A stretch of 64,000 bases of DNA from Octopus vulgaris (Eukaryota), in the NCBI GenBank assembly GCA_951406725.2, contig OX597815.1, positions 173,104,001-173,168,000 of the forward strand. The letters are read 5' to 3'. A model generated the notes under the pieces. That model made no database searches. It was not told where the DNA came from and saw only the letters and a program-made list of their open reading frames with translations. Below are positions 14,592 through 57,099 of the stretch, piece after piece; the first letter of the stretch is position 1; each line of letters begins with the position of its first letter. The position numbers were made by a program, and so were the translations under genes.

Positions 14592-15572
14592 TCAAGTAGT
14601 GTCCAGGCCTTTGGCTTGAATTAACGACACAACATAAGGAATCCCAGAAGTTTCTAAATCACTGTTACTGTCTCGTTCAAGTTCAATTTTGATAGGATAA
14701 GAGTCTTTGGCACTTTTAGTGTGAGGACTGAAATCTTCAGTATTTGAGTGAGATAAATTAGATAAAGAATCTTCAGGTAGTTCTGAAGATTTTAGACGCT
14801 TTGGAGGTGGAGGACTTTTTGGGTCTTCATTATCACAGTAAGAATGTGGTTGCCAAGGTTCTGATAAATCATCGTGGACAACAATATGTGTGTCTGAGTG
14901 TCTTGAAGGGAAAGAAGATAAGAAATCTTTTTTACTGCACCTTTTTTTCAAAGGACTTGATGGTTCTTGTTTTAATCCTACAGAATCATTGGCATAGCCT
15001 GAAACTGAAGAGTCTTTATCAGCTGAATAAAGGATCACCGGAGGAACTGATTGTTTTGTTTGGAACTGTATTTGATTTGTCATTGATTCTGTAGCTAAGT
15101 TCTGTAACTGTTGCACTGGTTTCGAGATTGATGGAGTAATATCACTATTGGGTAAACCCATGAAAGATACACCAGTTGATAAAGATGGGCCATCAGTTTT
15201 AGGCATTGTATCCATTGTATTAACAATCTCTGTTGAAATGGCATCCCTAATAATGCCTGGAGATTCAGTTGGTTGAGAGATTAAGGCCTTAGTTGTGACA
15301 GGATTGTCAATAGAACTCAAAACCTGCTTCCGATAAAGTTTACACATATCTAATAGATCACTTAAACCAAGGATTTTTGCAATATGCTCCATATCCTCCA
15401 ATACCTCCTCATTAAGGGAGACAACACCTTCATACATATATTTAGCAAATGCCCATAAAGCATCACCACCAATATCCTGAGAAAATGTCAACTGGAAACA
15501 ACCTGATGTTACAGTGGCATTTGGCAATGTTAAAAGTTGTGGACTAAGAGCAATCAACACAACTTTGTGAAC
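14592..15572 (-). CDS. Terminal exon of the BTB gene: C-terminal half of BTB/POZ domain plus S/P-rich disordered tail
   Basis: ttttctag|GTT acceptor, phase 0; VHKVVLIALSP...AKYMYEGVVSL...IAKILGLSDLLDMC is a ZBTB/Kelch-type BTB; basic NLS-like PPPPKRLK; SUMO-consensus LKQE and IKIE. Confidence 0.9.
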   Translation of the reverse strand, partial: VHKVVLIALSPQLLTLPNATVTSGCFQLTFSQDIGGDALWAFAKYMYEGVVSLNEEVLEDMEHIAKILGLSDLLDMCKLYRKQVLSSIDNPVTTKALISQPTESPGIIRDAISTEIVNTMDTMPKTDGPSLSTGVSFMGLPNSDITPSISKPVQQLQNLATESMTNQIQFQTKQSVPPVILYSADKDSSVSGYANDSVGLKQEPSSPLKKRCSKKDFLSSFPSRHSDTHIVVHDDLSEPWQPHSYCDNEDPKSPPPPKRLKSSELPEDSLSNLSHSNTEDFSPHTKSAKDSYPIKIELERDSNSDLETSGIPYVVSLIQAKGLDTT

Positions 15573-16542
15573 CTAGAAAAGAAAGAACACATATTTATAG
15601 AAAAACAATAAAAGCAGAATATTTCAAAGAATCACATTAAAAGCCTAACTGAACCCCAAACCCTGCAAAAATAAATTATTAAAAAATATATTTTGTGTAC
15701 AGAGACATAACACATTTCTTTGATTGGAAACATTAACACATTATTGACTTAGGAAATTAGGAAACTATTTTATAATTTAGGAAGAAAAGAGAAGATGAAT
15801 AATCCTTTGTATTCTAATAAATAGTGCATGATCATGAATAATCACAATATTACATTTCTTCATATATTTGCTCTTAACTTACATAGGCTAGAAACACAGG
15901 ACTCTATATACTTCTAACACAAGGTATGTTGAGAATCTGCCTCACAAAAAAATAATAAAAATTATGTATTAATGTATGTACGTATGTGCATACATGCATA
16001 CATACACACGTATATGTCTGTAAACTTGTGTCTTCATGTCATGACATTGCGTGATTGCTGTAAATGAATGTCCTTTATTTTCAATATTCTGTGGAAACAC
16101 GTCTGGCTATGGTGAAATATTACCAAGCTTAGAAACAAGGAAGGGTTGGCAGCAGGAAGGACATCTGGCCATAGAAAATCTACCTCAATAAACTCTGTCT
16201 GACCCATGAAAGCACGGAAAAGTAGACATTGAAACAATGATGATATATACACATACATAGTTGTCTCTTTGTTTGCATGGTTTAGTTTTAGCAATCTTTC
16301 TTTTACTTTTTTTCTTAACCAGTCAAAGAGCCCATGAGATTTCAGGTATCATAAACAATATTCATAATTTCAAACAAATCTGTTGTTGATTACACTGAAA
16401 ACAATTCATTGGCTTGTTTGGCAAATGCAAGTGATTTAAAATATAATATTATTATCAATTTCAATTTTCCAATTTTGATTGTTTTCATTACATTTAATTT
16501 TTCTTTTACCCACTTCACATTGTGGACTCCAATATGATATAT

Positions 16543-17590
16543 TATCATCATCTTTTAACATCTGTTTTCCTTGCTGGCATGGGTTGGATGGTTTAACAGG
16601 TGCTAGCCAGCTGAAGAGCTACCCGAGCTCCATGTCTGTTGTGGTATGGTTTCTACAGCTGGATGCCCTTTCTAATGCCAACCATTTCACAGAGTGTACT
16701 GGCTGCTTTTACATGGTACTGGCATAGGTGCTTTTTATGTGGCACCAGCACCCATGAACCAGTAAGATTAGGATCACTCAGCTGAAAAGGGATCCAGAGG
16801 TCATGCCTGTATGCAAGGACAACCACAATTTTACTTAGCTTGATGTGTCTTCTCAAGCAAAGCAAATCACTAGAAGTTTCAGTTCCCTGTTGTCCCCTCT
16901 GTGAGATACAACATTTGAAGATCCTTTTTTACCACTTCATCCCATGTCTTCTTGGGTCTATCCCTTCACAATAAGAGATCAGCATTTCTTGATGCATCTA
17001 CCTGCATTTATAAGCATTACATGAACATACCATTGCAGTCTTCTCTCTTGTACACTACACGTGATGCCTTGTATACACAGTTTTTCTCTCAAATCACTTA
17101 TACTCAGTCGTATATGCACACTGACATTACCCATCTGGCTTCATTTTTTTCATGCCTTCACATGTCATCAATAGTCACAGCTCATGTCTCACTGCCATGT
17201 AGCATAAATGTTCATGCACAGGCATCATACAATCTGCCTTTTACTCTGAGAGAGAGACCCTTCATTACTAACAGAGTAGCAGATCTCTGAACTTTACCCA
17301 GTGCATTCTTATTCTAGCAGCTATGTTTTCAGAACAACCTCACCTAAGTAACAGAAACTGTTAACTACTTCTAAGGATCACCCCGACATTTGAGGGAGTC
17401 TATTTTTTTTAACATTCCTAGTGTTTAATGTACTTGCACATTAGCCATGTGTAAAGACTACTGTCTCTGTTAATTTTCCAGTGATGTTATTGCACCTCTT
17501 ATGTGTCCAAAACTTGCACTGAGTATACCATTTGGAGTTTCTCCCAACAGCATTTCTACATGTCAAGCAGGGCCTTCACCCTGAAGAGAT
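16543..17590 (-). mobile_element. Degenerate RTE LINE fragment (RT C-terminus and 3' tail)
   Basis: Reverse-complement homology to 47150-48478; (ATC)n end. Confidence 0.8.
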
Positions 17591-17842
17591 CTGTCATTTG
17601 TCCCATATTTGTTATCTCGTATTAATAATGTAGACTGTCAGTGGAACCATTAAGTTAACCCCTATTTTAGCAGGGAAAATTGGCTTTAAAATACTTGTTA
17701 TGTGCTATAATGTCTGTGCTCATGATTTGGATTAGCAGCTGATATTAACATACTAAAGGAAAATACTTAAATAATAAAGAAAAACAAGTGTACATGAATA
17801 GATACAGAGTTAGATAATCATGATTTGATATTTAATACTTAC

Positions 17843-18005
17843 CATAATTTTCATTGTTCCATTTCCAATGGAAGCATCACAGAGTTTACCTTTTTTCCAA
17901 AGATTGGTCATATTGGAGAGCATGTGGCCCTGATGTTTGTGCACAACATATGAATGAGTAGGGTTTTCAACTGTTTTCATAAACGTTGTTGGTGTATTCT
18001 GCTCA
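17843..18005 (-). CDS. Internal exon: N-terminal half of BTB domain (shared constant exon)
   Basis: Acceptor tttctctttatgtacag|T (phase 2) and donor ATG|gtaagt (phase 0); HQGHMLSNMTNLWKKGKLCDASI joins VHKVVL to complete the BTB. Confidence 0.88.
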
Positions 18006-25860: not shown

Positions 25861-28102
25861 TGAGTGATATTTTGTAGATGGAAATTGTGTGAAACCTTAT
25901 GCAAGAGATGACAAAGGACAGTGTTGATTGGTGATATGCAGTGTTGGAGAAAACCTCTATTCAGCAATGTAAGCATGACAAATTGAAATTCACAAGGATA
26001 ATGGTAATGATGTAGACTGAGAGGTATACATTTTATGTGTATCCGTTTGCATGGGTATGTAGGTATATTTACAGCCTAGTTGACTATCACTGTTTTTTTT
26101 CTGTACTGTGACATTATTTCACTTCTCTGACATCCCTAGCCATTCATATGAATGGGACCTCTCCCATCATCCTTATCACCCAACCCCTTCTACTTACACT
26201 TTCATTTTCCCCATCATCCTTATCTGCCTATTTGTATGGGCCCCCACTAACTACCATACTCACCATTTGTTAACCCATCTTTAGGAGACCACACAACATT
26301 GGACCTGTTGTGTCCAGTACACTTTACTCTAATCTTCATCTTTCCCTCTTCTTGTTCACTCTACCTGCCATTATACTCTTACTTCTTTTCACCCACATAT
26401 CCTTGCTATCGCTCTCTCTCTCTCAAGCACATGGATCATCTTGCCACTGTTACTGCTCTATTCTCTTGCTCACAATTCACTGATTGTACATACTTGCTTC
26501 AGAATACTGAGTACCATTCTTATGACTATCATCCATACCTCTGTTTATCTTATCCTTAATGCTTCCCACTCTATAAACAGGTTCATGAGCAAGAAGTCAT
26601 GGAGTCAAGAGGTTTCTTCAGTCATGTCATAGACATAGCTACCTCTGAAGCACTGATGCTTTGAAAAAAATACTCAATACTTTTTTCTGCAAATTACTTG
26701 GAACTTGCAATACTGCAAAGTAGCTGGAACAAGGAAGGGCATCTGGCCATAGAAACCAAGCTGAGAATGAAACCCACAAGTGACATATAGTCTTCCAGCC
26801 CAACTACATTAGCAGCACCCTCAAATGTGCTAACTTGAACCATACTGACCACCAATCCATACCAGCATCGCTGGTGTAGATATAAATATTTAAGCAGTGT
26901 ATGATTAGAAAACCTATGATAAATTTAAAGTAGACAAACTTCAGTTTTTAAGCTTTTTGCTGTGGTGAATATATTTTTTTTATTCTTCAAGTACACAGAA
27001 TAATAAAGGAGATTGTCCTGACATGTTCCACAGTTTGTTAACCACTCATTTGATGGGCAAGTACCCCATTATTCTTCTGCCCACAAAAAGAACTTACAGT
27101 AAATTGCTATTTAAATTAAACACAAATAGAATTTATATGTAAAGGCTAGACTAACTGTATTGTCAGCCGTACGTTGAAGTAACAGATAAACTTAAAGTAG
27201 TTTAACCATTGTTTTTGAGGGCTTTTTTTTGTTGTTGTAGGACTTTTAAACAGATATTGATGAACACGATGATGATGATGATTATTCTCTTTATACACAG
27301 AAAAATAAAGAACACATTGACAACTGATCAGACAATCAGTACCCCTTCTCTTTCACTTTTTAAAGGTAAATTTGGACAAGTTTGTCAAAATTTACCCTTT
27401 GTAATGCACCTTCATTACATCGTGAGTGAATGAACACACCATAAAGTAGTAAGTACTAATGGGGTACGAAGCAAACTAACTGTACCATCATAAAATGCAT
27501 CCAGTCAAAACAACGCAGGGTCGAGAGGACATGCCAATCTCTTTAGTTGTGATGCCCCGAAAAATGCACACAATGCATTCTGTAAAGTGGTTGGTAATAA
27601 GAAGGGCAGGTACCCCACCCCTCCGGCCCAAAGTGAAACATACAAGCGAGAAGTTAACATTGAACCCCTTCAAGGAAAGCACAACCACGCACGTACATAT
27701 ATAAATGTCAGTTGCAATAAAATGTATTCAACTGTTAAAGTGAAAGTCACAAAACATTAGACACACACATGTATCTTTAAAGTATTTCTCAAGCGAAATA
27801 AGCGTGTGACAAAGCTGAATTATTATTACATAAACACAAACACTACATTACACACAGGACGGACCTCTGCAGTTTCCGACTACCAACCTCCACTCCATGA
27901 CATTGGTGAACCCGAATGCATCGCAGAAAACACGTGCGATAATTTTGGTTTGACATACAAACATTATATATATGTGTGTGTGTGTGTTTATTGCATGTAT
28001 GGTGTATGCGTGTGTGCAAATTAAAAAGCTTGTTTTTAAATATAAGAATTGTTCTATATAACAAAAATCTTGAGACTGGGGACGATCGTGTAAAAGTTAT
28101 GC

Positions 28103-29647
28103 TTACGTGAAAGAGTTGGCGCAAGAATGCACATCTGTAATCATAAAGGAGGATGTCTCTGAACTTTGGTCGGCAACACGATTCTCTTCCTGAGTTTCAA
28201 TTCTGCTAGAACTTTTTTCTTTCGATTCTCTCCCTCTTCCAAAATGTAAACTTTGTAAACACCGTAAGTTGTTTTTTGCCTCACTGGAACTTATCTGTTG
28301 TCTTCTGTTTGTAACTTGTTCTCTCCAATTGACAGATTTTTCGCTGGAATCTCCGGTTGTTGAAAGATGCGGCCTTGTAGCGTTAGATTTTGGTAAACAC
28401 GAAGTATTTAGGGATGATATTGGTGATGAAGTGAGGAGATTAATATTCTTTTTCTGCGATAAGGCAGTAGAATTATTTGAGAGATGTTGAAATTCATTTC
28501 TGAAATTATTTACCCTTTTGTTGGAGGTGATCTTAGAATTTAATCGAGCCTCTTCCAAGAAGGGTGCTGCTACTGCTGATGTACTTTGCTCTCCAGCAAT
28601 GTTACTAAGAATAGATGCCATCTTCTTTCTCTGTGAAACAGATGTTGGCTGTCCGAATAACTGACTGATAGCACGAACATCTTTTCTGTTTATGCCACCC
28701 CACAGTAGTTTCTCTATGGCCGTAGCTCTCAGACTGTGGTTAGTGTAACGTTTGGACAGTCCTGCCTTGTGGCTTAGCGTAGGCATCATACCACCCAGAG
28801 GAGTTTTACCATACGGAATGCGATCGAACCAATACGGTTGACTAGAATCAACCAGTTTTTTAGGTTTTTGGAAAAGTCTATCAAAATCCTGATGCAGTTT
28901 AGAAATATACAACTCGTATGCCCTCACTGGACAGAGCACATCTCCTTTCAACGATGGTATCAGCCCTCCAGCTAATTCCTCATCATTTTCCCCGTTTCCA
29001 TCCAGAGGTTCAGATTCGTTTTGAACAATGCTCCGCTCTCCCTGAGCATCAGTCCGAATAACAAATGAAGTTATCTTCAATTCTGTCTGTCCATCTCTTC
29101 CCAGTCTGCACATGTAATATTGCAAAATAAACCAAACATACTCCAAAAGTTCCCGTGGAGTTGGATTCTGCATGTTTGCTTTAAAATATTCTTTTAAACG
29201 AGCCATGTCTTGCTCTTCGACAGGAGGGTAATGTCGTATCAGGCCTTTGCCCTCGGCTTTAATACGCTTCTCCATAAAAACAAAGGATTCGTTCGCTTCG
29301 ACGAAAGCATCTCCTTTAATAATATCCAGATTGAGAGTTTCCTCAAAGTGTCGTTTGAGTGCATAACGAAGAGAACGGAAAGCTGTGAGCTGATAAAGTT
29401 CACATTTTTTTGTTCGCGCACCAGCATATAATCGCTTCAATACCTGACATAATAATGACACATCTTGGGTCGCAGACTCCACATTATAACCAACTTCATT
29501 GCAAAAATCGGTGAAAACTCGCACCCCCCATTGCGTACTATCTTTCGTTTTCTGACAGTGTTTATCTTCAGTAGTTTGTTTACTTGAATTATCGACAACA
29601 GTCAGATTACTACTAGGTTGGACCACCTTATGCCACTCAGTCGCCAT
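28103..29647 (-). CDS. Crypton-derived DUF3504 (tyrosine-recombinase-like) protein of the KCTD1/QRICH1/ZMYM/KIAA1958 type; 514 aa standalone, or first exon 28107-29647 spliced to the BTB exons
   Basis: Intact ORF with TQWGVRVF, SLRYALKRHF, EANESF, GKG..HYPPV, YMCRLGRD, CPVRAYELYISKL, WFD..P.GK..LG.MM, AGLSKRYTNHSLRATA; stop codon lies inside the donor AC|gtaagc. Confidence 0.9.
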   Translation of the reverse strand: MATEWHKVVQPSSNLTVVDNSSKQTTEDKHCQKTKDSTQWGVRVFTDFCNEVGYNVESATQDVSLLCQVLKRLYAGARTKKCELYQLTAFRSLRYALKRHFEETLNLDIIKGDAFVEANESFVFMEKRIKAEGKGLIRHYPPVEEQDMARLKEYFKANMQNPTPRELLEYVWFILQYYMCRLGRDGQTELKITSFVIRTDAQGERSIVQNESEPLDGNGENDEELAGGLIPSLKGDVLCPVRAYELYISKLHQDFDRLFQKPKKLVDSSQPYWFDRIPYGKTPLGGMMPTLSHKAGLSKRYTNHSLRATAIEKLLWGGINRKDVRAISQLFGQPTSVSQRKKMASILSNIAGEQSTSAVAAPFLEEARLNSKITSNKRVNNFRNEFQHLSNNSTALSQKKNINLLTSSPISSLNTSCLPKSNATRPHLSTTGDSSEKSVNWREQVTNRRQQISSSEAKNNLRCLQSLHFGRGRESKEKSSSRIETQEENRVADQSSETSSFMITDVHSCANSFT

Positions 29648-30300
29648 CTTGTTGAGGCTTTGTCAGGTTGGCTTAACGACAGTTAATACATATTCAATAA
29701 AATAGATTTTTTCTCATAGTGCAGAAAATTTCCCATAGTACAGGTTCAGAGGTATCTTTTTTTTCTGTATATTTTTTTCCAGCGAAAGAATTACAAACAT
29801 ACACAAACGCTGATTCGTTTTCAAAATATAATCTACATAGATCTGTTACAGTTGAGGATAATTTGGATAGATAGATTTTCGACAGAAGTTACATAAATTG
29901 TTTAAGACTGGGTAGTAGTACGTGGTAGAAGTCGACCAGCCAATCTAATAATAGCTGATTATAAACCAGACCCGCTGCTGTCAGTTAGCTTGCTAGCTGG
30001 CTATCGGTCCTGCAAAACAAGCAATAATACAGCAATAGAAAGCAGTTCGCTCGACTTGTAACTGTTGTTCCTCTTAAAACAAAACAACTTAATGGAGGAT
30101 AACAAATCTGATAGTGTATGTGCGCATGTTGTATATGTGTGTATCTCTCTCTATATATAAACACACACATACACGTTGTGCATATGCCAATATATTAATT
30201 CTGGCAATATCTGCAGTCACCCTCTCTCTCTCTCTCTCTTTCTCTCTCAATCTATCTCTTCGGTAAACTACAGAAAAGCTGAATAGAAATAAATCATTAT
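29640..30300 (-). promoter_or_regulatory. Putative CpG-retaining promoter / 5' region of the DUF3504 exon
   Basis: Local CpG retention; YY1-like CAAGATGGCG spanning the ATG; two degenerate ZNF143-like motifs (ttctcatagtgca, ttcccatagtaca) at 29711-29742. Confidence 0.4.
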
Positions 30301-30516
30301 ACATGAAAGATTATCTCATTATTTAAAAGAAATTATCAATTATTTTTGTCTAGTTCTTTTCTTTATATATATAAGAAAGTAGTAGAAGGGTGGGAAAGGG
30401 TATCAAGTGAAACATTAAAAAAATAAACTTAAAATTATCTGATGTAATAAATATCAATTTCAGTAATTACAATGACTGTGATCTTAATGAAATAATAATA
30501 TATATATATATATTCG

Positions 30517-30884
30517 TTTGTTTCATTTGACTGCGGCCATGCTGGAGCACCGCCTTTAGTCGAACAAATCGACCCCAGGACTTATTCTTTGTAAACCTAG
30601 TACTTATCCTATCGGTACTTTTTTTTGCCGAACCGCTAAGTTATGTAAACACACCAACATCATCGGTTGTCAAGCGACGGTGAGGGGACAGAGACACACA
30701 CGTGTGTGTGTGTGTGTATATATGACGGGCTTCTTTCAGTTTCCGTCCACCAAATCCACTCACGAGGCTTTGGTCAGCCCGAGGCTATAGTAGGAGACAC
30801 TTGCCCAAGGTACCACCCAGTGGGACTGAACCCGTATCCATGTGGTTGCTAAGCAAACTACTTACCACACAGCCACGCCTGCGC
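30517..30884 (-). mobile_element. tRNA-derived SINE, full length, CpG-intact
   Basis: Head gcgcaggcgtggctgtgtggtaag...gggttcagtccc on minus; several copies in the window. Confidence 0.88.
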
Positions 30885-32155
30885 ATATATTATTATTATT
30901 ATTATTATTATTACTATTAAAAGAGAAAAAGTTAAAGACATTTAATATTTATTTTCACAAAGACATCAAACCTATTTCTTTTTAGGAAACTCTTTTCAAA
31001 ATTAAAAACATCTCTGCAAAGAGGATCCTATTCCTGAAATAAAGCCCTAATTCCATGAAATTTTCTGGAGATTTTCTTACAATCTTTTCATTATTAAAAC
31101 CACATGATCAATGAGGAGAATTACTGACGGTGGTATACACTGCTTCAAAAATGAACATTGAGGGGTGAGCATCAAGCTAGAGAAACAGCTCTCCCTTATT
31201 AGGTTCTTTGAGTTTTTTAAAAGGTAATTTTGAACTGTTAACCATTCTAGTGTGTCCATTAATCTTAAATGAGAGAGGCATAGATTAGATCCTGAATTAG
31301 TTTAACATGAGTGGAGAACAGTCAAATTTTTTGTTCTAAGAATGTAATTAAGCTAGCAAGCCAATCAGTTATTGTTTAGCCTCAGGTCATTGGGTGATAA
31401 GATATGTTTATGATCAAAGACATTTCAGTTGTAACTATTTGGTCACTTATTTAGAAGTACAGAATCTGGAGACAACATTATTCAATTAGTCTTTGAAAAA
31501 TTGGAAAAATTTGAGGGAGATTTGGCTGATATTTTTGCAAGTGAAAGATAATGTGGAGAAACTCACACTGCCACCTTCATTGATAAAGGTAAAATGAGAA
31601 ATTTAAATGGAACTGTGGGCTTTAAAGTCACTGCAAGCAACAACTTCAAAGATGAAATAAAAGAGCTGAGATGAGGTTTCTCTATCTTTCCTGATAATGT
31701 ATCATGCAAATAAAGAAAGAAGATACTCCAAACCTACATAAAAACTATGGAAACAGGTTTTGTACTGAATTGAATGCAGAAAATTCTTTGGAGAGTAAAC
31801 AAAATGAAAGAAAATCAGTGATTGAAAAAGACAACCATAACATATGTCAGCAGCATCCAATAAACATATATGAAGGCAATATCAACTGGATAGTTAGTTG
31901 CTACGAGATAATTAGATGGAGGAAGAGAAATACAGGCTAAAGGCATTGACAAACTAATGTGGTAGATAAGATAAGCACACCAACCAATGACATTAAGGTT
32001 ATAATTGCCAATTCTAAAAGACATTTGATAATGTTGATGATGGCATGCATATATTTGTGTATATGAATTTGATTATGTTGATGGCAGTGGTGGTGTTTAA
32101 TGCTGATTCATGAGTATTCATAATAGGCAAAGGTTTTGTTTCCATCTATTTTTAA

Positions 32156-35300: not shown

Positions 35301-37355
35301 TTGTAATCTCAACATTTCCAAATGCATTGCATGGCATGAAGATAATGTATGAAGCAGAACATTAAGGTAGTAAAAGCAAATATGGAAATTAGACATTAAT
35401 GATGAACCAATTAGTCAGGAATCCAATACTGAAATGAGCATTATGACAACTATAATTATAATGAGGACTAATCTGGATTGTTGCAGTTTACTCTTCCAAT
35501 TCAGTTATCTGTGGGATGTTGAAAAATCTCATCATTGACAATCAAAATGTGTTTATTTTTACATTATTTAAATACTATACATCACTTAATAATTTATTTC
35601 CTATTTTTGTTCTGTTTTGTAAACTGTAGCTATTACATTCTTAAATATTTTTTACAATTAATTCTACATCAGCTACACTATGTTAACAACATTTTTATCC
35701 AATTTACTACTCTTATTATTTTCATCACATTAATTTGAAACAATTATTCTCATCACATATACAAGCAACATGCCCTTTTCCCCATAGCATAACTCAAACT
35801 TCTAAAATATAACAAATGCTTTATCACTAAAATATTAGATTGATATTGAAATAGTTCTTGATGTGAATCGTTTTTTTTTTTTTACTTTGTTTCAATATTT
35901 TATATTGACTTAAAAAATATTCATTTCAGTTCCAAATAAGTGAAATAGTTTTGGGTAAACTCAGATATTCAGCAGATTTAATCATCACATATATAAACAA
36001 GCTGACCAACAAACCAACAAAGGAACCTCTATATGATCAATCAATGTAATCAAAAACAGTAGTCAAATCTCATCCTACTGCCTGAAAAAAAACGACAAAA
36101 AAAAAAAAAAAAAAGGCTGCACTGAAGAGACAAAAAAAAAAAGGGACTAGACATTCAAGGCTGGAATCCTTTTTGTCAAAATAGGTTTGCTTGATTAGAC
36201 CTGACAATGGAGTTAATCAGCAAGATGACTGTACTTGCAGAAATTTTTACTTAGTAAAATATATGAACAAAATATTTCAGTTTTATCATACATAATATTC
36301 TACAAACCTACAAATTATGGGTTCAAAACCTATCATAAGTATTTTAATCTTCTTTTAAGAGAGAAACATTGCTCAACTTTAATTCACTTTGTTTCACTGA
36401 AGGTATTTGAAGAATTAGTTACCATTCTGATTGTATAATCAAATGGTGAGTGTTTAACATCAAGAGGGCCATCTGTTAAGTATCTGAATCAAATAAATAT
36501 CTACAAGAATTAAGAGATAAGTGACATTTGTTTCTATTTCCAGGTGAAAATATAAATAAAAAACATACTTTTATTGATCACTATGAAGTGATTACAATAA
36601 TTTAAATGATTTTTTTTTAATGTACACTTGATACAATTGAAAGAAGATGCACAGAAATTAGCTAAACACAAACAACAAAGTAACAATTAGTCTTGTCCAG
36701 TGTATAAAAAATGTTAGTAGTGTAGCAGTAGACCATGAAAATGTGTGGTGATCTATATATGATTATTAAATAATTATTCAAGATGATAAATGAATTGTCC
36801 TTTGGTTGTTCAGCAATTTTATGAGAAATTTATTTATTGACATAAAATAAACCAATATAAAATTAGAAATTCATAAAAACAAACCTTATTTATAGTGTAT
36901 AAAATAATTTCCAGTTTAGAAACTCTTAAATGGCAGTTGTACAAGCTAGTCAGTAAGACAGCAAACTTCACAGTAGAAGCAGTGGTTTCAATTCTAGATT
37001 TCAATCCAGATTTCACTGATATGTTTTATGTCCATTAATAAGGTGATAACAATGTAAAATAGTTGATAAAGTCAATATGCAGTAGACTCCTTGCTTAAAA
37101 TGAGCCCCAGTCCAAGGAGATCTGTAATCATGAAAGTTTTCTGTATTAATGAATCCAGACTTGAAAAATATCCCCTATGTTATTCATCCACCACTTCAAA
37201 AAGTGTTTGAAGAGAGGCTCTTAGATGTCAACAGGATAGACATACAGTCAAACGACAAGTCTTTATTAGAATTTGATGAAAGTTTGAGTTGAGTATTTTT
37301 CCAAAGCCTTTCTTCTACTTTGAAAGAACATAAACTAAGAGCTAGAAGAGTTAAC

Positions 37356-37760
37356 TTACCCATATAAGGATCTTTTGTTCTGTCTTTGTATTTGGTTTTG
37401 AAGTTCCATATTTTGTTGGGCATCTACAGTCATGTGTGAAAGCCTAGACTGTATTCTTGGAATCTGAGCATTATTAGGCATGGTAGATTGGTTGTAAACA
37501 GTGGGTTGTGCTAGGATGCAATCATTTAATGAAGAAGTTTGACTAAAATAGTTTGTAATATCAGGTAGATTAAAGTGAGTGGTTAAATTCTCAGAGTTAA
37601 TGTGAGATTGCAAATCTGCAGGAATGATTAGCTGGCCAGAGTTGTCAATAACATCTGAGGGTAATTTATCAATTAAATTCGATGATATATCAGTTTTAGT
37701 CCCAAATAATGGAAGATTTCTTTCAGAGAGTGGTTCTTGTTTGATTACCTGACAATCAAC
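37356..37760 (-). CDS. Exon 2 of the THAP transcript: low-complexity Q/N/S-rich linker (VDCQVIKQEPLSERN...QNKRSLYG)
   Basis: tcctttccag|GTT acceptor, phase 0, matching the THAP donor; 134 open codons; IKQE SUMO consensus; stop lies inside donor GG|gtaagt, so the exon ends at 37360 if spliced. Confidence 0.75.
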   Translation of the reverse strand, partial: VDCQVIKQEPLSERNLPLFGTKTDISSNLIDKLPSDVIDNSGQLIIPADLQSHINSENLTTHFNLPDITNYFSQTSSLNDCILAQPTVYNQSTMPNNAQIPRIQSRLSHMTVDAQQNMELQNQIQRQNKRSLYG

Positions 37761-39193: not shown

Positions 39194-40355
39194 TTAGGTC
39201 GTCAAGTATGAAATTTGTAGAAAAAAAAAGTTTTCTTATCTTTTATAAATACAAGGAATAGTTTTACTCATCAAAATATATTGTCAATACACTTTTGCCA
39301 TTTCAGTGGTAGCTTGTCCAGCCCAGAACTGTAAAAGCCTGGGAATCTAGAGTCAATAAAATCTTGGAAGGCCTGTTTTATAGTACCATTGAAATTAATT
39401 TTTTTTCCTATCAAAAAGTTATCCACATTCTGGAAGAAGTGGTAGTCAGTGGGGGCAAGATCAGGTGAGTATGGTGGATGATGGAGAACTTCCAACTCCT
39501 GCTCCTGTAGTTTTACCAATGTCATTTTTGTCTTGCAATAAAATAGGAGTGGATCTATTGACTAATCTAGGCTGTTCTTTGGTAAGTTTCTGCATCAATT
39601 GGTCCAGTTGGCTGCAGTATACTTCGGCCATGATTGATGAGCCAGGTTTAAGAAATCATAATGGATCATATCTGCGCCAGACCACCAAACACACACCATC
39701 AGTTTCTTTTGATGAATTTAGCTTTTTGGACTGTGTTTTGGTGGCTCGTCTTTGTCCAACCATTGCGCTGAATGTTTACAGTTGTTGTACTGGATCCATT
39801 TCTCATCACATGTTACAATTCGATTAAAAAAATTATTCATTTTTGTGACAAGAAAGTAGCATTGCTGTTTCTGATTTTCATTGTGTTCATGTGGAACCCA
39901 CTTATCCAACTTTTTCACTTTACCAACTTGAACTAGGTGAATCAATATTATTTGCTTGCTAACACCAAACAACAACGATAATTCACAGGCACTTTCAGAT
40001 GGATCTGACTCGATGGTGGCTTTCAGTTTGTCATTATCCACCTTTGTTTCTGGTTGACCGTGTTGCTCATTTGTGAGGTCAAAGTTACCAGAACGAAATT
40101 TTGCAAACCAATTTGATACTGTCTGCTGTGTAATAACATTAGGATGAAATACTCCATGAATATTCTGAGCTGTTTGTGATGCATTTCCAAGAAAGAACTC
40201 ATATTTCAAAACTGTATGAATGAGTTAGAATAAAGAAATAGACGTGTCAGCTTTCTAACAAAGAATAAAGATTCAAAATATAATAATGGTGCAAAATGAG
40301 CAGCTGTCAAAGTTTACTATATACCTTACTACAAATTTCATACTTGACGACCTAA
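39194..40355 (-). mobile_element. Mariner transposon, family B, frameshifted
   Basis: Perfect 27-bp TIRs ttaggtcgtcaagtatgaaatttgtag (39194-39220 and 40329-40355); motifs WVPHE, IVTCDEKW, HPPYSPDLAPTDYHFF. Confidence 0.95.
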
Positions 40356-41335: not shown

Positions 41336-41384
41336 TAAGACAAATATGCATAAATATATGCACACATACACATATATATATATG

Positions 41385-42130
41385 GTCAGAGGTTTAGGGA
41401 TATCCTTACTGAGAAATTTGGTGATAGGGAGGAGGAGCTACAGTCCTGCAGCATAGAAGACAGCTGGGAATTCCTGTGAGACAGCTTGTTGAGTGCTACA
41501 GACCAAATCTGTGGCTGGTGCAAAGTCCCTTCCAGACCTAGGGTAAAATGGTGGTGGAACAATACTGTAGACAGGGCCATTAGAGCCAAAAACAGGCTTG
41601 GAAGGCCTGGAAGAGTTGGGGTAGCAGGAGAATGTATCAGATAGCCAAAAGGGAAGCTAGGAGACAGGTATATACATAGCCAAGGCAGTAGCAGAAAAGA
41701 AGTTTGCCAATGTTCAGCGATGTGAGGACCAAAGAACTGAAGTATTTCAGATCGCAAGACAGTGTGTAAGAGAAAACCGTGATGTCATAGGAAAGAAATG
41801 TGTCTGCATTGATGATGGTGCCCTTGCGTTTAATGATTCAGCAAAGAAAGAGGCTTGGAAATACCTTTATGAAAGACTGCTGAATGTGGAGAATGAATGG
41901 GAGGAGGTGGGTCTGCCAGAGGTTGACCCAATTGAGGGACCAGCTACCCGAATCAACAGTAACCGGGTAGATAAAGCAATTAAGGATATGAAGACAGGGA
42001 AAACACCTTACCCATCAGGAATCACCAATGAGATAGTTCATGAAGGAGTTATACCCAATGACCGGTGTGGCAGCACTATAGTCAACTACTACAAGGGTAA
42101 AGGTGATGCTTTAGATAGAAATAACTATCA
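41385..42130 (+). mobile_element. RTE LINE internal fragment
   Basis: AIKDMKTGK, IPNDRCGSTIVNYYKGKGDALD; homologous to the start of the 46351 element. Confidence 0.8.
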
Positions 42131-42149
42131 AATTATGGTAGTTATTTCT

Positions 42150-43690
42150 ATGATGGACAGGTCTCCTTGAGCACAGCAAAACATCAATGATCTCAGTCTT
42201 TTGTTACCTCTTCCATAAGACTCAACATCTTGAGATCAGCCTTCACTACTTCATCCCATGTCTTCCTGAGTCTCCCTCTTTTACAAGTACTATCCACTTT
42301 AACCCTTTAGCATTTAAACTAGCCCTATCCAACCTGAATATTCTACTAGTTTTAACTTCAAACTGTCAAAATTTGGCCTCTTGTACCTACCCTAGAATGT
42401 CATTCTAAAAATATAAAATCAACTCAGTGAAATCTCAAAGTTACAAGATACTGCATGATTAATTCAAAACTATACTCTTTACTCTTTTACTTGTTTTAGT
42501 CATTTGATGGCGGCCATACTGGAGCACTGCCTTTAGTCAAACAAATCGACCTCAGGACTTATTCTTTGTAAGCCTAGTACTTACTCTATCAGTCTCTTTT
42601 GCCAAACTGCTAAGTTATGGGAACGTAAACACACCAACATCGGTTGTCAAAGTGAAGGTGGGGGGGCAAACACAGACATATATATATATATATATATATA
42701 TACGATGGGCTTCTTTCAGTTTCCATCTACCAAATCCACTCGCAGGGCTTTGGTCGGTCTGAGGTTATAGTAGAAGACACTTGCCCAAGGTACCACACAG
42801 TGGGACTAAACCTGGAACTATGTGGTTGGGAAGCAAGCATCTAACCACACAGCCACTCCTGTGACTAAGTGAATTTAAAAGTATTAAAAATTTGATGGTA
42901 ATCTGAATGCTAAAGGGTTAAGTAATCAGCATTTCTTTATACAATTGTCATCATCCATACCAATGAGTGCAGTCTTCTCTCACAACATGTTTCTTCTTAT
43001 ATCCAAAATCTCGACCTCAACACATTTATACTTTGTTGTACCTGCACACCCATCAGAATATACTATGTTCATTCTTTTCTCATCTTCACATATCCTCTGG
43101 TTTCAGATCACACATCTCACTATCATGTGACATTGTTAATTGTACACAAGCATTGTGCAATATGCCTTTCACTGTGAGGGAGAGACCTTTTGTTACCTAA
43201 AGAGGTAATAACTCCTTGAATTTTCTCTATCCTCTTCTTATTCTAGTAACCATACTTTCAGAATTTCTTCCCCCACTGCTAATCAGGACCCTTTAAGTAA
43301 CGTAAATTATGTACTACTTCTAGGAAACTTCCTGGGCATTTGAAAGAATCTATTGTGCGTTCTTAATGTTTACTGCCACATACAAAGTTTACTTTCCAAT
43401 TAACTTTCCTGCGACTCCACTGCATCTTCTATGTGCTTATGAAAACTCCAAACTGTACACTAAATTTGTTGTTGTACATGTTACTAACAGCATTCCTATA
43501 CACGGCTTGTATGTCTCTCACAGCCTTTCATTTACTCCTAGCTTCTTCAGAGGCCATCAGTTCACCAGGCCAACAAATGCCAAGTACAATGACTTGCTTT
43601 TAGCTAAATACTTCTGTAGCTGTCTTACAAGAAAATGGCATCTATAGTGCTTCTCCCTGGCACAAAACCAAACTGCATCTCATCTCGACT
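42150..43690 (-). mobile_element. Degenerate RTE LINE containing a piggyBac-like MITE (42303-42917), which itself contains a SINE (42472-42863)
   Basis: Reverse-complement homology to 46600-47960; TTAA-flanked CCCTTTAGCA / TGCTAAAGGG ends. Confidence 0.8.
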
Positions 43691-46350: not shown

Positions 46351-48478
46351 TACCTTAGTAGTTAAAGCAATTAAGGGTATGAAGACAGGGAAAGCCCCCG
46401 GCCCATCAGGAATCACCGCTGAGATGCTCAAAATATCTGGCAGTGTCAGCTATAGCTTAGTCACCCATATAGTCAACCAAGTGATACGTGACGGAGTCAT
46501 ACCCAATGACTGGTGTAGCAGCACCATAGTCAACTGTTACAAAGGTAAAGGTGATGCATTATATACGAATAATTAGAGAGGGTCATAACCCAACTAATTA
46601 GGAAGAGAGTGTCAGCCTAGATGAGATGCAGTTGGGGTTTGTGCCAGGAGAAAGCACCACTAATGCTATATTTTGGTAAGACAGCTGTAAGAGAAATACC
46701 TAGCCAAAGATAAACCTCTGTACCTGGCTTTCGTTGACATGAAGAAAGCCTTTGACAGGGTCCCCTGATCGCTTATCCAGTGGTCAATGAGGAAACTAGG
46801 GATAGATGAATGATTAGTGAGAGCTGTGCAAGCCATGTACAGGGATGCTGTCAGTAAGGTGAAGGTTGGCAATGAGTACAGTGAAGAATTTCAGGTAGGG
46901 GTAGGGTCCACCAAGGATCAGTCCTCAGCCCTCTCTTATTCATCATAGTCCTCCAGGCAATAACAGAGGAATTCAAGACAGGATGCCCCTGGGAGCTCCT
47001 CTATGCTGATGACCTTGCTCTAATTGCTGAATCACTATCAGAACTAGAGGAGAAGTTTCAGGTGTGGAAGTGAGGATTAGAATCAAAGGGCCTTACAATC
47101 AACCTAGCTAAAACCAAAGTCTTAATAAGTAGGAAGGCAGACAAACCACAAATCCCTTCAGGTAGATGGCCCTGCTCGGTCTGTAGAAAAGGTGTAGGTA
47201 GAAACTCCATAAGATGTACCCAGTGTAAGCTATGGACACATAAGAGGTGCATCAATATTAAAGGAAAGCTAACTGTGAAGATAGTTTTTGTATGTGGCAA
47301 ATGCTCAGGAGCAATAAACACTGAAAATGTGCAAAGAACAGCTTCTGTTACATTCCAGAGAGAAAAACTACAAGTAGTTGATAGCTTCTGTTACCTAGGT
47401 GACTGAGTCAGTAGCAGGGGTGGATGCTCTGAAAGTGTAGCTGCTAGAATAAGAATAGCCTGGGCAAAGTTCAGAGAGCTCCTACCTCTGCTGGTGACAA
47501 AAGGTCTCTCGCTCAGAGTAAAAGGTAGACTGTATGACACATGTGTACAAACAGCCATGCTACATGGCAGTGAAACATGGGCCGTGACTGCTGAGGACAT
47601 GCGTAAGCTTGCAAGGAATGAAGCCAGTATACTCCGCTGGATGTGTAATGTCAGTGTGCATACACAACAGAGTGTAAGTGCCCTGAGAGAAAAGTTGGAC
47701 TTAAGAAGCATCAGATGTGGTGTACAAGAGAAATGACTGCGCTGGTATGGTCACGTGTTGTGAATGGATGAGGACAACTGTGTGAAAAAGTGCCATACCC
47801 TAGCAGTTGAGGGAACCTGTGGAAGAGGTAGACACAGGAAGACTTGGGATGAGGTGGTGAAGCACGACTTTTGAACATTGGGCCTCACCGAGGCAATGAC
47901 TAGTGACTGAGACCTTTGGAGATATGCTGTGCTTGAGAAGACCCAGCAAGCCAAGTGAGACCATAACTCGTGGCCTATACCAGTGATGTATAACCAGCCC
48001 ACTTATGAGTACCCTTCATTCACTGAACAATAAACTTTGCTTGCGAAGATCTGTTGAGGCAAGTGAAATCAAAATCGCTGATGTGACCGATAACAGTACC
48101 ACCTGATTGGCAACTCGTGCCAGTGGAACGTTAAAAGCACCATCCTAGTGTGATCATTGCCTTCCTGGCACATGAAAAATAATATTTGAGCATGGTTGTT
48201 GCCAGTGCCGCCGGACTGGCTCCCGTGCAAATAGCACATGTAAAACACCTTTTGAGCATGGTCGTTGCCAGTACCACCTGACTGGCCCTGGTAGCACGTA
48301 AAAGCACCCACTACACTCTCAGTGTGGTAGGCATTAGGAAGAGCATCCAGCTGCAGAAACTTTGCCAGATCAGATTGGAGCCTGGTGCAGCCTTCTGGCT
48401 CGCCAGTCCTCAGTCAAACAGTCCACCCCATACCAGCATAGAAAGCAGGCGTTAAACGACAACAATGATGATGATGAT
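46351..48478 (+). mobile_element. 5'-truncated RTE-clade LINE (RT pseudogene plus 3' UTR)
   Basis: MKTGKAPGPSGI, AFVDMKKAFDRVP, QGSVLSP, YADDL (47002-47016), FCYLGD, HGSETW; several stops; (GAT)n tail. Confidence 0.93.
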
Positions 48479-51319: not shown

Positions 51320-51762
51320 ATGCATGTCCAGCCCAGTTAAGAGTATCCCTGATGCATCTTGAAATATGATACGCTTGAGAAGACCTGTTGAGTCAAATAA
51401 AACCAATTTCGCAGCTGTGACCAATGCCCCCTGATTGGCTCCCATGCCAGTGGCACTTAAAAAGCACCATCCAAATGTGGCTGATGCCAGTACCTACTGA
51501 CTGGCCCCTGTGCCAGTGACACATAAAAAGCACTATCTGAACATGATCGATGCCAGGCCTGCCTGACTGGCTCCTGTGCTGGTGGCACGTAAAAAGCACC
51601 CACTACACTCTTGGAGTGGCTGGCATTAGGAATGGCATCCAGCTGTAGAAACATTGCCAGATCAGATTGAAGCTTGGTGCAGCAGCTGGCTCTCCAGACC
51701 TCAGTCAAACTGTCCAACCCATGCCAGCAAGGAAAACGGACGTTAAACAAAGATGATGATGA
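51320..51762 (+). mobile_element. RTE 3' UTR fragment with ~65-bp tandem units
   Basis: Close match to 12548-12853. Confidence 0.8.
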
Positions 51763-53750: not shown

Positions 53751-54030
53751 CAAATTGTATATTTTATAAAAGTTAAAATTCCACCACACTACCTTTTCTT
53801 TAACATGTGTCCCCCTTCATTTATTAAAGAAAAAAAAAAGAACTTTGAATGAATTTGTAGTCCTCTTTCCTACAATCTCTAAATTCTTTCACTCAGATGC
53901 TGACCTGAGTATGCTCATTCCTCCATTATAAATTCTATTCTTTCAAACTAATCAACTGCATTACATCCAGTCTTTTGTATTATATCCATGCAGGCATTTC
54001 ACTCTTGAACTATGCTGGAATTTTCAGATT

Positions 54031-54939
54031 TGTACAGTTTCGCTCACAGACTTAAAAATTATTATATTTTAACTAAATAGATTGAAACTTCGTATACTGG
54101 TGTAATTTCTAATGTTGAACATGGTTCACTTTCAACATTTTTGACAAAATTTCGTATTTTAAAAGTTATTTTGTGTTAAAGTTATCGTACATGGGTAATT
54201 TTAACCAATCAACAACATGTATTCAGTTGAAGAAAGCTACTGCTGTTTGCAATAGTAATCGAAGAGGATCAACTTCCGGGTCATCTCTACTAAATGTCAA
54301 CACTCTGTTCTATTCATATGTCAAGCAAAGGTTGAGGGAAAAGTGTTGCTCCTTGGCCACAGCTGACACAAAAGAGAAGCTTTCTTCCTTTCTATTCAGC
54401 ACCATGCATTCCTTACTTTTTCCCGCTCTACTGGCAGACAGCCACTTCTACACTATCAACTACCAACCAGTGAGCGAACTTGTCACTACCACTACAATTA
54501 CTGCTGTATCTCTAACTACATTCAGGCAAATGAATAAATATATGTAAATAATATTTCTTCCTTCTTGGTGTTGATTCTTTGATGTTTACTGATTACTCTG
54601 ACGCAAGACACCCCCAAAAAGCATGTAATATGCAACATGGAGTAAACAAACATAAAATAGAAGAGAGTGGTGACATTTAGTAGAGATGATCCAGAAGTTG
54701 TTTCTCTTCAATTACTATCGCTAACAGCAGTAACTTTCTACAGCTGAATATACATCATTGATTGGTTAAAAATACCCAAATACGACAACTTTAACACGAA
54801 ATAACTTCTAAAATATCAAATATTGTCAAAAATGTTGAAAGTAAACCGTGTTCAGTGTGAGAAATTACACCAACATACGAAGTATCAAACTCTTTAGTTT
54901 AAAAAAAAAATTTTTTTTTTTAATCTGTGAAACTGAACA
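54031..54939. mobile_element. Non-autonomous DNA element with ~280-bp imperfect TIRs
   Basis: 54031-54315 is the reverse complement of 54656-54939 (e.g. tcatctctactaaatgtca / tgacatttagtagagatga). Confidence 0.85.
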
Positions 54940-55355
54940 GTTCCAAATTTTCTTGCCCAATATTTTAAAACAGGATTGTTTCAACTACAATAAAGAACTT
55001 ATATCCAAGGAAAATAGGGATGATCTGTGTTAGCAATTACTCAGTTCAAAAGTGTAATAAATTACCTAGGAAGAAGAAACATCTAATGTTTCAGACAGCA
55101 TCCTTTCTGCTGAGGAGTATTACTTGAAATACATTACTACTTTCAGTGATTCATTATCAAATAAATAAATAAATAAATAAATAATAACAATCTAGATATT
55201 TTCTGATGACGATATATAACTTTCTTGTCTAATCAATAACTGTATTAACCCTCATGGAAATTGAACCACAATGTTGTTAATTTCTGTAAGTTAAAGTTGG
55301 ACCCATTTTTATTATAATTACATTATGGGGAGGGGGCGAAACTTGTAGTTATGCC

Positions 55356-55386
<31 letters not shown>

Positions 55387-55389
55387 ACA

Positions 55390-55752
55390 CTTTTACTTGT
55401 TTGCCATGTGACTGCAGCCATGCTGGAGCACCGCTTTGAAGGGTTTTAGTTGATAAAAATCAACCCTAATACTCACTTTTTTTTTTTTAAGTCAGAAACT
55501 TATTTGGTCAATCGCTTATGCCGAATAGGCAACTTACGGGACATAAACAAACCAGCACCGGTTGTCAAGCGGTGAAGACAGATACATATATGTGTGTGTA
55601 TGACAAGCTCCCACACAATTTCCGTTCACCAAATTTACTCAAAAGGAATTAGTCGGTTCGGGACTATCGGAGAAGAAACATGTCCAAGGTGACGCACCGT
55701 GGAATTGAACTAAAAACTATGTGGTTGCGAAGCGAACTTAATGACACAGCCA
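55390..55752 (-). mobile_element. tRNA-derived SINE, diverged
   Basis: Homology to 30517-30884. Confidence 0.8.
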
Positions 55753-56502
55753 TATCGATAATGGTAATGTATCTACTACAATCTACTTGGTTTAGTTTAT
55801 GAAACCGAAATAAGAAAATGCAATCAAATAACATTTTATTATGAAATCTTTTGCTAGTTTTATACTAACATTCAATAAATAAAACCAGCTGAAAGAATGT
55901 CAAAGAAAAGGAGAGAGAAAGGTAGAGAAGGGGACGAGGAGAGAGAAGGGTGGAGGCGATATTGTATATGTTTCAGTATTGTAAATTTTACGTTTGTATT
56001 GATTAACTGTCATATTTTAATAAAAGAGATATTTCTAAAATATTGAGTGCAATATTAACAAAACAAATAATAAAATTATGATTGCGTTGGCTACTAACAG
56101 TTCGAAGGACTAAAAAGCTGGTGGTTAAATTGTCAACATTTAGCAAGTGTTAATTAAAATATACTGTATACAGTCTGTCCACAAGTTGAATATTTCCTCA
56201 ATAATAAACATTCAAGAAAAAGAAAGAAAAAAACGATACGTAAGTTTTTAATTATGGAAAAATAAATGAATTAATAAATTCGCAGATTTTTCCAAAACTG
56301 ATGCATGTGGAAGTTTACTAAAGGAATCACTTCTTGCTTCATTTGGGGAAACAAGACACGCGAAACAAAGATTTTTATATATGAAAATAAATAGAATATA
56401 AACGACACTCATACACACATGCATACACGTGTGTCAAGTGACCGTAGTGTATAAATAATAGCCTGATGAAAATTAAATGAGAAAATAATTGGATGAACTC
56501 AC

Positions 56503-56997
56503 TTCGATTTGATTGAGAAAATCCCGATTACTCGAGACCTTAGTTATGTCTTCGAAGTCGATGTCACATTGCAAAATCTTCGGAGAAAACAACTCATTCA
56601 AACTTTTTTGCGATGTCACATTAATATATTTATTAGCCCACGGACAAATGGGAGGAATTCTTAGCGTCATCGGCCGGTTCTTACGTTGTTGTTCTGGCGA
56701 CATGTTATCCAGTCCCAACTGGGTTCGCATCATGTTGTAGTTGTTGATAATTGCAGGCCATTCCTGTGACCAAGGGAAAAAAGAAGGGTCTTTTTTGTCG
56801 TGGGTTTTTTTGCCATTGGGAAAATGTAGACTACAAACACTTGTGTACTTAGAATCAATACGTAAGTTACTGTTTCTTATGAGTGCAACCCAAGTAGCAC
56901 GACGGGTTTCTTCCTTAGGGAGACTATAGAAACGGATTCTTGCATGTCTTTTAGAGTCGGCAGAACAGAAAGGGATGCAACAATTAACATGTGGCAT
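56503..56997 (-). CDS. THAP-domain protein, first coding exon (165 aa)
   Basis: N-terminal C2CH finger C-x4-C...P...W...CSLHF...DPSFF (AVPTIF-box variant); donor GAA|gtgagt, phase 0. Confidence 0.9.
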
Positions 56998-57099
56998 TAT
57001 TGCTATTAATTGATTTTTAAACGTCTCCCACCTTTTTTTTTAATTTTCATGTGTTGAAACGTTTTCATGGGGACTGGTGGAACTTAGGTGTAAACAGTT

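Follow-up and report, generated by a model that had tools for sequence, protein, structure and literature searches.

The 64,000-nucleotide stretch of the Octopus vulgaris genome analysed here (assembly GCA_951406725.2, contig OX597815.1, positions 173,104,001 to 173,168,000; hereafter the window) carries on its minus strand two unrelated modules related to transposon proteins, a THAP zinc finger and a DUF3504 domain, both of which lie upstream of one pair of exons encoding a BTB domain and can be joined to it in frame. An earlier note on this DNA had suggested that alternative promoters choose which of the two modules is attached to the BTB domain. The features concerned are as follows, in window positions:

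54750..57500: CpG-retaining island that covers the THAP first exon and a short stretch downstream of it; putative promoter A
56503..56997, minus strand: variable first exon A, coding part, with the THAP zinc finger and the start of the linker; phase-0 donor
37360..37760, minus strand: linker exon of the THAP isoform; phase-0 acceptor, phase-2 donor and a SUMO-type motif
27250..31250: CpG-retaining island over the DUF3504 exon; putative promoter B
29985..30009, minus strand: alternative phase-2 acceptor and 7-codon terminal piece, whose peptide is the C-terminus of the database protein P0008
28107..29647, minus strand: variable first exon B, coding part, with DUF3504 and a low-complexity linker; phase-2 donor
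17843..18005, minus strand: constant exon 1; phase-2 acceptor, phase-0 donor, and the N-terminal part of the BTB with the swapped strand and first helix
14592..15572, minus strand: constant exon 2; remainder of the BTB, a tail of about 235 amino acids (aa) modelled as disordered, two SUMO-type motifs, and the stop at 14592

The five coding exons (495, 401, 1541, 163 and 981 nt) carry splice signals at every site the earlier note had named, with acceptors at 18005, 15572 and 37760 and donors at 56503, 37360, 28107 and 17843. Joining exon A, the linker exon and the two constant exons gives 2040 nt and 679 aa, and joining exon B to the same constant exons gives 2685 nt and 894 aa, each as one open frame whose sole stop is terminal; both variable modules, referred to below as heads, lie upstream on the strand of the BTB exons and both (2/2) have a donor in phase with them. 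Taken alone, this pair of phase-2 donors is weak evidence for a shared-BTB gene, and the DUF3504 donor (28107) scores 3.5 on a rough donor matrix. The main support comes from identity to independent gene models in other species: the predicted THAP-BTB product equals XP_036368416 (isoform X2 of Octopus sinensis LOC115230799, also CAI9718551) at 679/679 aa, and the predicted DUF3504-BTB product matches XP_029656788 (isoform X1 of the same gene) at 893/894 aa and Octopus bimaculoides XP_014776313 at 880/894 aa. Exon A is identical to residues 1-165 of XP_036368416, exon B corresponds to residues 1-513 of XP_029656788, and X1 and X2 have a BTB part of 381 aa in common; when the last exon was compared with database proteins, limited to the longer ones, 4 of 3975 candidates matched. 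The lengths foreseen for the two products are thus those of the O. sinensis models, whereas the expectation that an annotation would call three unrelated genes here was not borne out, as RefSeq places both isoforms in a single gene in O. sinensis and has two genes in O. bimaculoides.

We consider it probable that this is a complex gene with two promoters in which the head is chosen by the promoter. Transcription from promoter A would yield the THAP exon, the linker exon and the two BTB exons, and hence the 679-aa protein, and promoter B would yield the DUF3504 exon with the same two BTB exons and the 894-aa protein; cis-splicing to the nearest in-phase shared exon would attach the head to the BTB, and either head may alternatively terminate without it. 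The claim that each first exon sits in its own CpG-retaining island holds. The CpG observed/expected (o/e) ratio, taken over 1-kb intervals, lies at 0.79-1.0 over the THAP start and its first exon and at 0.95 over the DUF3504 ATG, as against 0.11-0.13 over the three downstream exons of the window (linker exon 0.13), and intervals above 0.6 start at 54751-56501 for THAP and 27251-30251 for DUF3504, with 15% of window positions above that value. No separate island that could give the BTB a promoter of its own was seen between 18 and 27 kb. CpG retention therefore marks the first exons and not the shared exons. From what is generally known of mollusc methylation, the two islands would be promoters that lack methylation, next to a gene body that carries it. 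A third CpG-retaining region, at 4750-10500, lies downstream of the BTB stop, has no clear coding frame and is perhaps the promoter of an adjoining gene. No extra heads were found among the island open reading frames (ORFs) inside the window, and in the 60 kb upstream of it none of 14 CpG-associated ORFs was head-like by eye (without a Pfam scan) and no BTB was present.

Pfam recognises a family in three of the five exon translations, namely THAP, DUF3504 and BTB, and none in the linker exon. The THAP match in exon A (E 1.5e-11, 45.3 bits, profile positions 1-68 of 87) is an ordinary N-terminal C2CH domain, with THAP11 and THAP2 as its best structure matches. The DUF3504 match in exon B (E 2.6e-7) reaches 31.3 bits against a cut-off of 29.7; its frame is intact and the HxxR motif is retained, there is a weak match to XerA (E 0.72), and no tyrosine follows the HxxR. 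Recombinase activity is not expected, since the catalytic tyrosine is absent. Elsewhere in the genome the exon finds matches of at most 34% identity and no terminal repeats flank it among the repeats listed, features that fit a domesticated, non-mobile and non-multi-copy Crypton gene. Each head would be a domesticated transposon domain without catalysis, giving DNA or chromatin targeting. In the BTB exons, BTB is the sole Pfam match (E 1.3e-4 on constant exon 2 alone, constant exon 1 being sub-threshold), with no DNA-binding domain, C2H2 finger array or BACK domain, which agrees with the earlier statement that they bring no DNA-binding domain of their own.

Outside Octopus, the join is conserved on the THAP side, in Argonauta and Sepia; the full DUF3504-BTB protein was found in Octopus only. 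The THAP first exon is 84% identical in Argonauta P0002, itself a THAP-linker-BTB protein, and 55% identical in the Logan protein P0009; the Sepia model P0007 begins after the THAP domain and continues through the linker into the BTB. In Argonauta P0003 and P0004 the tail part of the DUF3504 exon and the point at which it joins the BTB are preserved behind a different head, in which Pfam finds nothing and which we take to resemble an IS1595-type ribbon with a BED finger; head replacement on the old tail is possible. The three Argonauta proteins (P0002, P0003 and P0004; GAB1597304-6) suggest that the BTB unit of the window has been triplicated there, two copies having a new head.

The earlier note had missed the head-only products, a vertebrate precedent (KCTD1 isoform b) for the DUF3504-BTB combination, and the family to which the locus belongs, with its much bigger cluster. 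Searched against the genome, whose contigs are labelled C3, C5, C11, C14, C15, C23 and C24 below, the BTB part of the last exon finds 26 matches. Within 200 kb upstream of a BTB paralogue and on its strand lie 16 of the 31 genome matches to THAP and 8 of the 15 to DUF3504, with none of either on the opposite strand; this upstream target makes up 0.045% of both strands, the counts including the window's own matches and clustered matches being non-independent. The same placement was seen by eye for 7 of 71 FLYWCH and 7 of 114 CENP-B_N matches, the totals being lower bounds (at least 71 and at least 114). At C15:71.43-71.50 (71430000-71502000) there are three FLYWCH and two DUF3504 heads, and alternative heads are also seen there in database proteins (FLYWCH in P0035, DUF3504 in P0037), as they are for other units; C24:13.42-13.45 (13420000-13452000) has one DUF3504, two FLYWCH and one CENP-B head. 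From one to five same-strand upstream heads accompany the paralogues at these two sites and at C24:25656000-25670000, C23:26793000-26819000 and C14:52069000-52079000, and none was found in four family searches at C15:14.06, C5:47.68 and C11:20.86 (the paralogues at C23, C24 (two), C15:14.06, C5 and C11 being judged by search coordinates alone). The position of the BTB intron recurs in all 12 units of the cluster C3-A, in 5 units of C3-B and at C14, and in a quick IQ-TREE analysis of 76 rows the 26 cephalopod-type head-first BTBs, the window included, form one branch with P0019 (SH-aLRT 99). The cephalopod BTB family would on this evidence be a landing pad for transposase heads, with the window as a two-head member, and a new isoform would arise when a transposon-derived coding exon comes to lie in front of the BTB in the same orientation, equipped with a promoter of its own and a donor in the right phase.

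The two C3 regions (148.95-149.38 Mb, C3-A; 151.24-151.39 Mb, C3-B) contain 12 and 5 tandem two-exon BTB units respectively. ORFs with an ATG start, at least 55 aa and a CpG-rich site were passed through complexity and hydrophobicity filters and then Pfam. Matches of DNA-binding type were found in 32 of 105 ORFs on the BTB strand of C3-A (100 filtered and 5 added by hand) vs 0 of 77 on the other, and in 9 of 17 vs 0 of 13 in C3-B. The C3-A heads belong to THAP, DUF3504, FLYWCH, CENP-B/Tc5, Brinker, psq, Tc1-type helix-turn-helix (HTH), DUF4817 and zf-C17orf113 families, and 27 of the 32 lie within 177 kb above the top BTB unit. At C3:149173000-149355000, minus strand, about 30 CpG-rich DNA-binding first exons (counted up to 149.38 Mb, the far end of the cluster lying beyond the region taken) stand above a ladder of four shared exons and a single BTB unit, an arrangement matching O. 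bimaculoides LOC106877732 and O. sinensis LOC115209932. The ladder exons are at 149322248 (phase-0 acceptor), 149268118 (phase 1), 149197473 (phase 0) and 149173585 (phase 0), with the BTB exons below them at 149173262 and 149172600; capture on the landing pad would have produced the many heads that enter the four-rung ladder at 149.17-149.35 Mb. CpG o/e exceeds 0.6 at 18 of 18 C3 first-exon matches found without the CpG filter, the background of the region being 39%, and is 0.09-0.32 in the distal three shared exons and the internal THAP exon, the shared exons by themselves lying at 0.09-0.19. A 7-mer scan of the 400 nt upstream of 32 C3 ATGs revealed no convincing common promoter word, and the first exons of XP_014782194 and XP_014782201 were not found up to 149.38 Mb, where only the internal psq exon was located.

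Splice phases can be compared in this cluster with published model proteins. In 14 models tested (three further rows fell outside the test) each head enters at the nearest downstream rung, and 14 of 14 junctions fall on a GT in the required phase in this genome; P0016 is isoform X5/X6 of LOC106877732, and Argonauta P0015 follows the same ladder. For 31 heads (27 Pfam matches and 4 picked by eye) the best-scoring donor is in the phase needed by the next shared exon in 25 (binomial p 9e-8 vs one third), and a phase-1 best donor is found in 5 of the 6 heads above the phase-1 rung vs 4 of 25 elsewhere (Fisher p 0.004; permutation 0.0036). Four short C3 THAP exons stop right before the zinc-finger histidine, which is supplied by the third shared exon.

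As side observations, C3:148960000-149173000 holds eleven further tandem BTB units amid Helitron and retroelement remains, several with heads of their own: FLYWCH and CENP-B at the second unit, STPR-like basic repeats, and ZSWIM3_N/FAR1. The five units at C3:151250000-151385000, plus strand, have THAP, IS630-type HTH with DDE, Brinker-Tc5, CENP-B and STPR heads, with the DDE domain retained in one head and the best donors mostly in phase 1; a GSKIP-domain ORF at about 151291500, on the opposite strand, adjoins a THAP start.

Several observations weigh against a two-promoter gene. Splicing in this genome rests on gene models, the RefSeq isoforms being predictions, and CAI9718551 and the Argonauta proteins take their names from the O. 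sinensis model. THAP is a separate gene in O. bimaculoides RefSeq, LOC106873460 (299 and 306 aa), the complete DUF3504-BTB protein is confined to Octopus, Argonauta having the tail with another head, and transposons are CpG-rich too when young. The best-donor test failed for 6 of the 31 heads, 2 of which have a model-supported in-phase donor, and was not blind, the domain-end cut-offs having been set by the analyst and four heads chosen by eye. Head-only proteins also exist. Read through past donor 37360, the linker exon closes one codon later and gives a 299-aa THAP-only form, which is P0011 (O. bimaculoides XP_052832365); the 306-aa THAP-only protein P0008 (XP_014776314) ends in the peptide encoded behind acceptor 30009, in a piece 360 nt upstream of the DUF3504 ATG; reading through past donor 28107 meets an immediate stop, as in the Logan protein P0006; and P0009 is head-only as well. 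An alternative would be that THAP and DUF3504 each form a separate head-only gene, or are relics of recent transposons, the fusions being minor conjoined transcripts or chained models. AATAAA/ATTAAA hexamers follow soon after both window donors, at 37267 and 27992, though these are common in AT-rich DNA; the early model KOF74710 chains several C3 heads, a sign of prediction errors at such loci, and a few C3 heads resemble mariner or Tc1 remnants. We nevertheless regard this explanation as unlikely. The stretch between 18 and 27 kb offers the BTB no island of its own, the join is maintained from Octopus to Sepia, the four short C3 THAP exons are incomplete by themselves, and the biases in strand and phase would not be expected of relics.

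Heads might also be joined to the BTB by trans-splicing, as used at lola and mod(mdg4) (PMC11426971, available part), or by alternative splicing from one distal promoter. Acceptor 30009 could feed the DUF3504 exon from an upstream promoter, and the database protein P0033 links BTB exon 1 of one C3-B unit with exon 2 of the next (unit 4 to unit 5; C3:151363881 and 151381709), skipping a nearer exon 2, a junction that is either a choice of tail too or a model artefact. This explanation seems to us highly improbable: all heads were found upstream on the BTB strand, so that cis-splicing suffices, each has its own ATG in its own CpG-rich patch, and the tested C3 models all enter the nearest downstream shared exon. 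A two-promoter gene spliced in cis accordingly remains our preferred account of the window.

What the BTB contributes was approached through structure models. The N-terminal side of the domain is modelled with a strand at 316-319 and a helix at 323-336. Its two-copy model scores 0.78, and the best of three controls 0.00; different runs share at least 90% of contacts, and the predicted local distance difference test (pLDDT) value is at least 83. Among microbial test cases, 21 of 30 solved pairs and 0 of 23 single chains came up to the score mark, as did 7 of 16 animal pairs, and the value is probably due to likeness to already solved BTB dimers. Residues 317-320 contact 402-405 of the partner and 313-334 take part in the interface. 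The models thus support a swapped-strand homodimer, a shape that is also shared with KLHL-type BTBs. The closest folds are BCL6, Keap1 and ZBTB9, the nearest sequences and folds are of ZBTB and KLHL types with no KCTD among the matches listed, and the TTK-type FxLRWN motif is absent at the aligned BTB starts as read by eye. Behind the BTB, pLDDT falls below 50 over residues 443-609 and 614-676. Tails across the BTB family are otherwise divergent, yet have in common a lysine SUMO-type motif and a late YP-x-x-hydrophobic motif, the latter possibly a cofactor site.

The shared, ZBTB-like BTB would dimerise and, with its SUMO-motif tail, recruit co-regulators, most likely co-repressors. By analogy with related families, in which DNA binding and repression are known, we lean slightly towards a repressor or chromatin-architecture function for the BTB-head proteins. 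Dimers of mixed isoforms are plausible and may be limited by co-translational assembly, which may favour BTB homodimers from the same mRNA (PMC11426971, available part) and so speaks against pairing of different heads. The same proteins could instead serve as Cullin-3 adaptors or scaffolds, with the heads as protein-binding modules and not sequence-specific DNA binders. The sequence and fold neighbours of the BTB do include the Cul3-type KLHL3, Keap1 and gigaxonin, a point in disfavour of a regulator; in the portions available, DUF3504 has been proposed for DNA binding or protein interaction (PMC3212892), and captured Tc1/mariner HTH domains in nematode F-box genes have been proposed as a protein-interaction platform (PMC12062965). 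Pfam, however, finds no BACK domain and the post-BTB region is modelled as disordered, what the heads have in common, across at least eight unrelated families, is nucleic-acid binding, and SUMO-type motifs recur in the tails, such that an adaptor function appears quite unlikely, and slightly more so than a set of independent head-only genes.

A search with the Sepia protein among 50% representatives gave 201 matches, 150 of them listed, and many of the 49 that were scanned with Pfam have THAP, CENP-B, DUF3504, FLYWCH, STPR, CG-1 or ZSWIM3_N ahead of the BTB. Different heads stand on a BTB-containing remainder of 99% identity in the Logan proteins P0028 and P0186/P0189, whose contigs are 3.5-4.2 kb long; a multi-exon frame on a single Logan contig suggests spliced RNA. 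In the abalone Haliotis rufescens, LOC124116851 has isoforms numbered X1-X14, of which the 12 seen place C2H2 (2), MADF (1), FLYWCH (2) and THAP (7) heads on one BTB, and 9 of the 12 diverge exactly ahead of a THAP-completing motif of the Octopus type. Five of the 12 are split THAPs; in 24 pairwise comparisons with the four octopus split THAPs, one H. cracherodii protein being compared as well, 27-40 of 66-70 residues are identical. Common origin of the Haliotis and Octopus arrangements would be the simpler reading, with repeated capture of one THAP subfamily as a possible alternative; Haliotis P0101/P0122 and P0041/P0049 fall outside the cephalopod BTB branch, at a position that the quick tree does not settle. 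An Atlas search with the abalone split THAP returned generic THAP clusters only. As a separate observation, P0065/P0066, P0087/P0092 and P0042/P0043 are pairs of related proteins with a lola-like N-terminal BTB, 369-563 shared residues and differing ends, which within the pairs are DUF3504, C2H2 and CENP-B, with BEN and zf-Tnp_2 in close relatives; an Atlas cluster of this N-terminal-BTB kind is mostly of Mollusca, and molluscs may thus use both orientations.

Much more tentatively, and in our view doubtful as a whole, molluscs could have possessed since before the gastropod-cephalopod split a protocadherin-style cluster in which cells select from dozens of promoters, each placing a different transposon-derived head on one BTB, and mixed dimers form, with octopods carrying about ten such loci and continuing to capture and swap heads. 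If this were true, mixed dimers would pair two specificities, some 500 pairs from the 30 C3 heads, and might provide a cell-identity code, or an adaptive transposon-recognition system in the role of the tetrapod KRAB fusions.

Clustered protocadherin and UGT1A loci have tandem variable first exons, each with a promoter, and constant 3' exons. The octopus loci resemble them in that first exons stand in tandem and have donors in phase with the 3' exons they share; however, the variable exons of protocadherin and UGT1A are paralogous duplicates whereas the octopus heads are mostly unrelated domains, and the C3 cluster differs in its ladder of nested shared exons with different phases. In lola and mod(mdg4), one BTB is common to 20-30 isoforms with differing DNA-binding modules, FLYWCH included, and the TTK-type BTB is reported to be arthropod-only (PMC11426971, available part). 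The earlier note had described the octopus locus as the mirror of these genes: one BTB is indeed common to isoforms with different DNA-binding modules, whereas mod(mdg4) and lola have an N-terminal TTK-type BTB and 3' variable exons and use trans-splicing, and octopus has 5' variable first exons with putative promoters of their own on one strand, an internal non-TTK BTB, and heads drawn from many transposon families.

A closer precedent for one product is isoform b of vertebrate KCTD1, in which the upstream insertion of a Crypton-derived DUF3504 as a single exon has led to a protein with DUF3504 at its N-terminus and BTB at its C-terminus (PMC3212892), KCTD-type BTBs being described as pentameric (PMC11426971; both sources in part). 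The octopus variant has the same order of domains, but KCTD1, whose BTB is of the KCTD type, has captured a single head and also has a BTB-only isoform, as against 2 to about 30 alternating heads on a ZBTB/KLHL-like BTB modelled as a dimer, and the octopus DUF3504-BTB presumably arose independently. In tetrapods, the capture of transposase DNA-binding exons by splicing onto a host regulatory domain is general, e.g. KRAB-transposase fusions (bioRxiv 10.1101/2020.05.07.082677, in the part available). The octopus exons are likewise spliced onto a host regulatory domain; the KRAB-transposase fusions are separate genes with a single capture each, the host domain being 5' in KRABINER, whereas octopus has many captures 5' of one constant domain, retained as alternatives.

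The proteins themselves are already known as unnamed RefSeq isoforms and as entries in the catalogue of Mukherjee and Moroz, 2023 (PMC10027918); it is the architecture of the locus that appears to be new. As far as the available part of that work goes, it lists THAP-BTB, CENPB-BTB, FLYWCH-BTB and psq-BTB octopus proteins, many of them the same proteins from C3 and other loci with 11 rows under LOC106877732, finds a BTB in most Octopus THAP and CENPB factors, terms the BTB transposon-derived and counts the proteins as separate factors. The word "isoform" is absent from its main text and "splic" occurs only in a reference title; the heads of the O. bimaculoides proteins in its supplements (LOC106877732 and related rows) are C3 ORFs and their remainder is the top BTB unit, and the window's O. 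bimaculoides loci are absent from the supplements. The octopus variable-first-exon layout is not described in the parts of PMC12111275 and PMC12062965 available, and a literature search, conducted largely outside subscription journals, found no account of a variable-first-exon BTB architecture.

Many of the "separate" octopus THAP, CENP-B, FLYWCH and psq factors would on this reading be isoforms of a few loci, that is, many transcription factors from one gene, built the opposite way round to the fruit-fly examples, and one host domain is seen capturing transposase heads repeatedly at its 5' end. Counting at gene level or at 3' ends would pool all heads of a locus, which may explain why the arrangement has escaped notice. 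The result would be a combinatorial regulator for cephalopod biology, whose choice of promoter is open to testing with 5'-end, long-read and single-cell data that already exist. A search of sequencing runs with the DUF3504 exon returned 24 rows, 19 of them with at least 95% of words and none recorded as RNA, and was not used as evidence.

The introns and flanks of the window gene contain frames (2121-2501, 39718-40224, 41661-42170, 47074-47736, 59744-61230 and 61984-62331) that, judged by eye, we take to be mariner/Tc1-like and long interspersed element (LINE)-fragment-like. A repeat search around both window heads found no element ends, its only product being an inverted repeat at 54018-54952, in the first THAP intron, with 297-nt arms that are 80% complementary and 341 nt apart, which is probably a small non-autonomous element.

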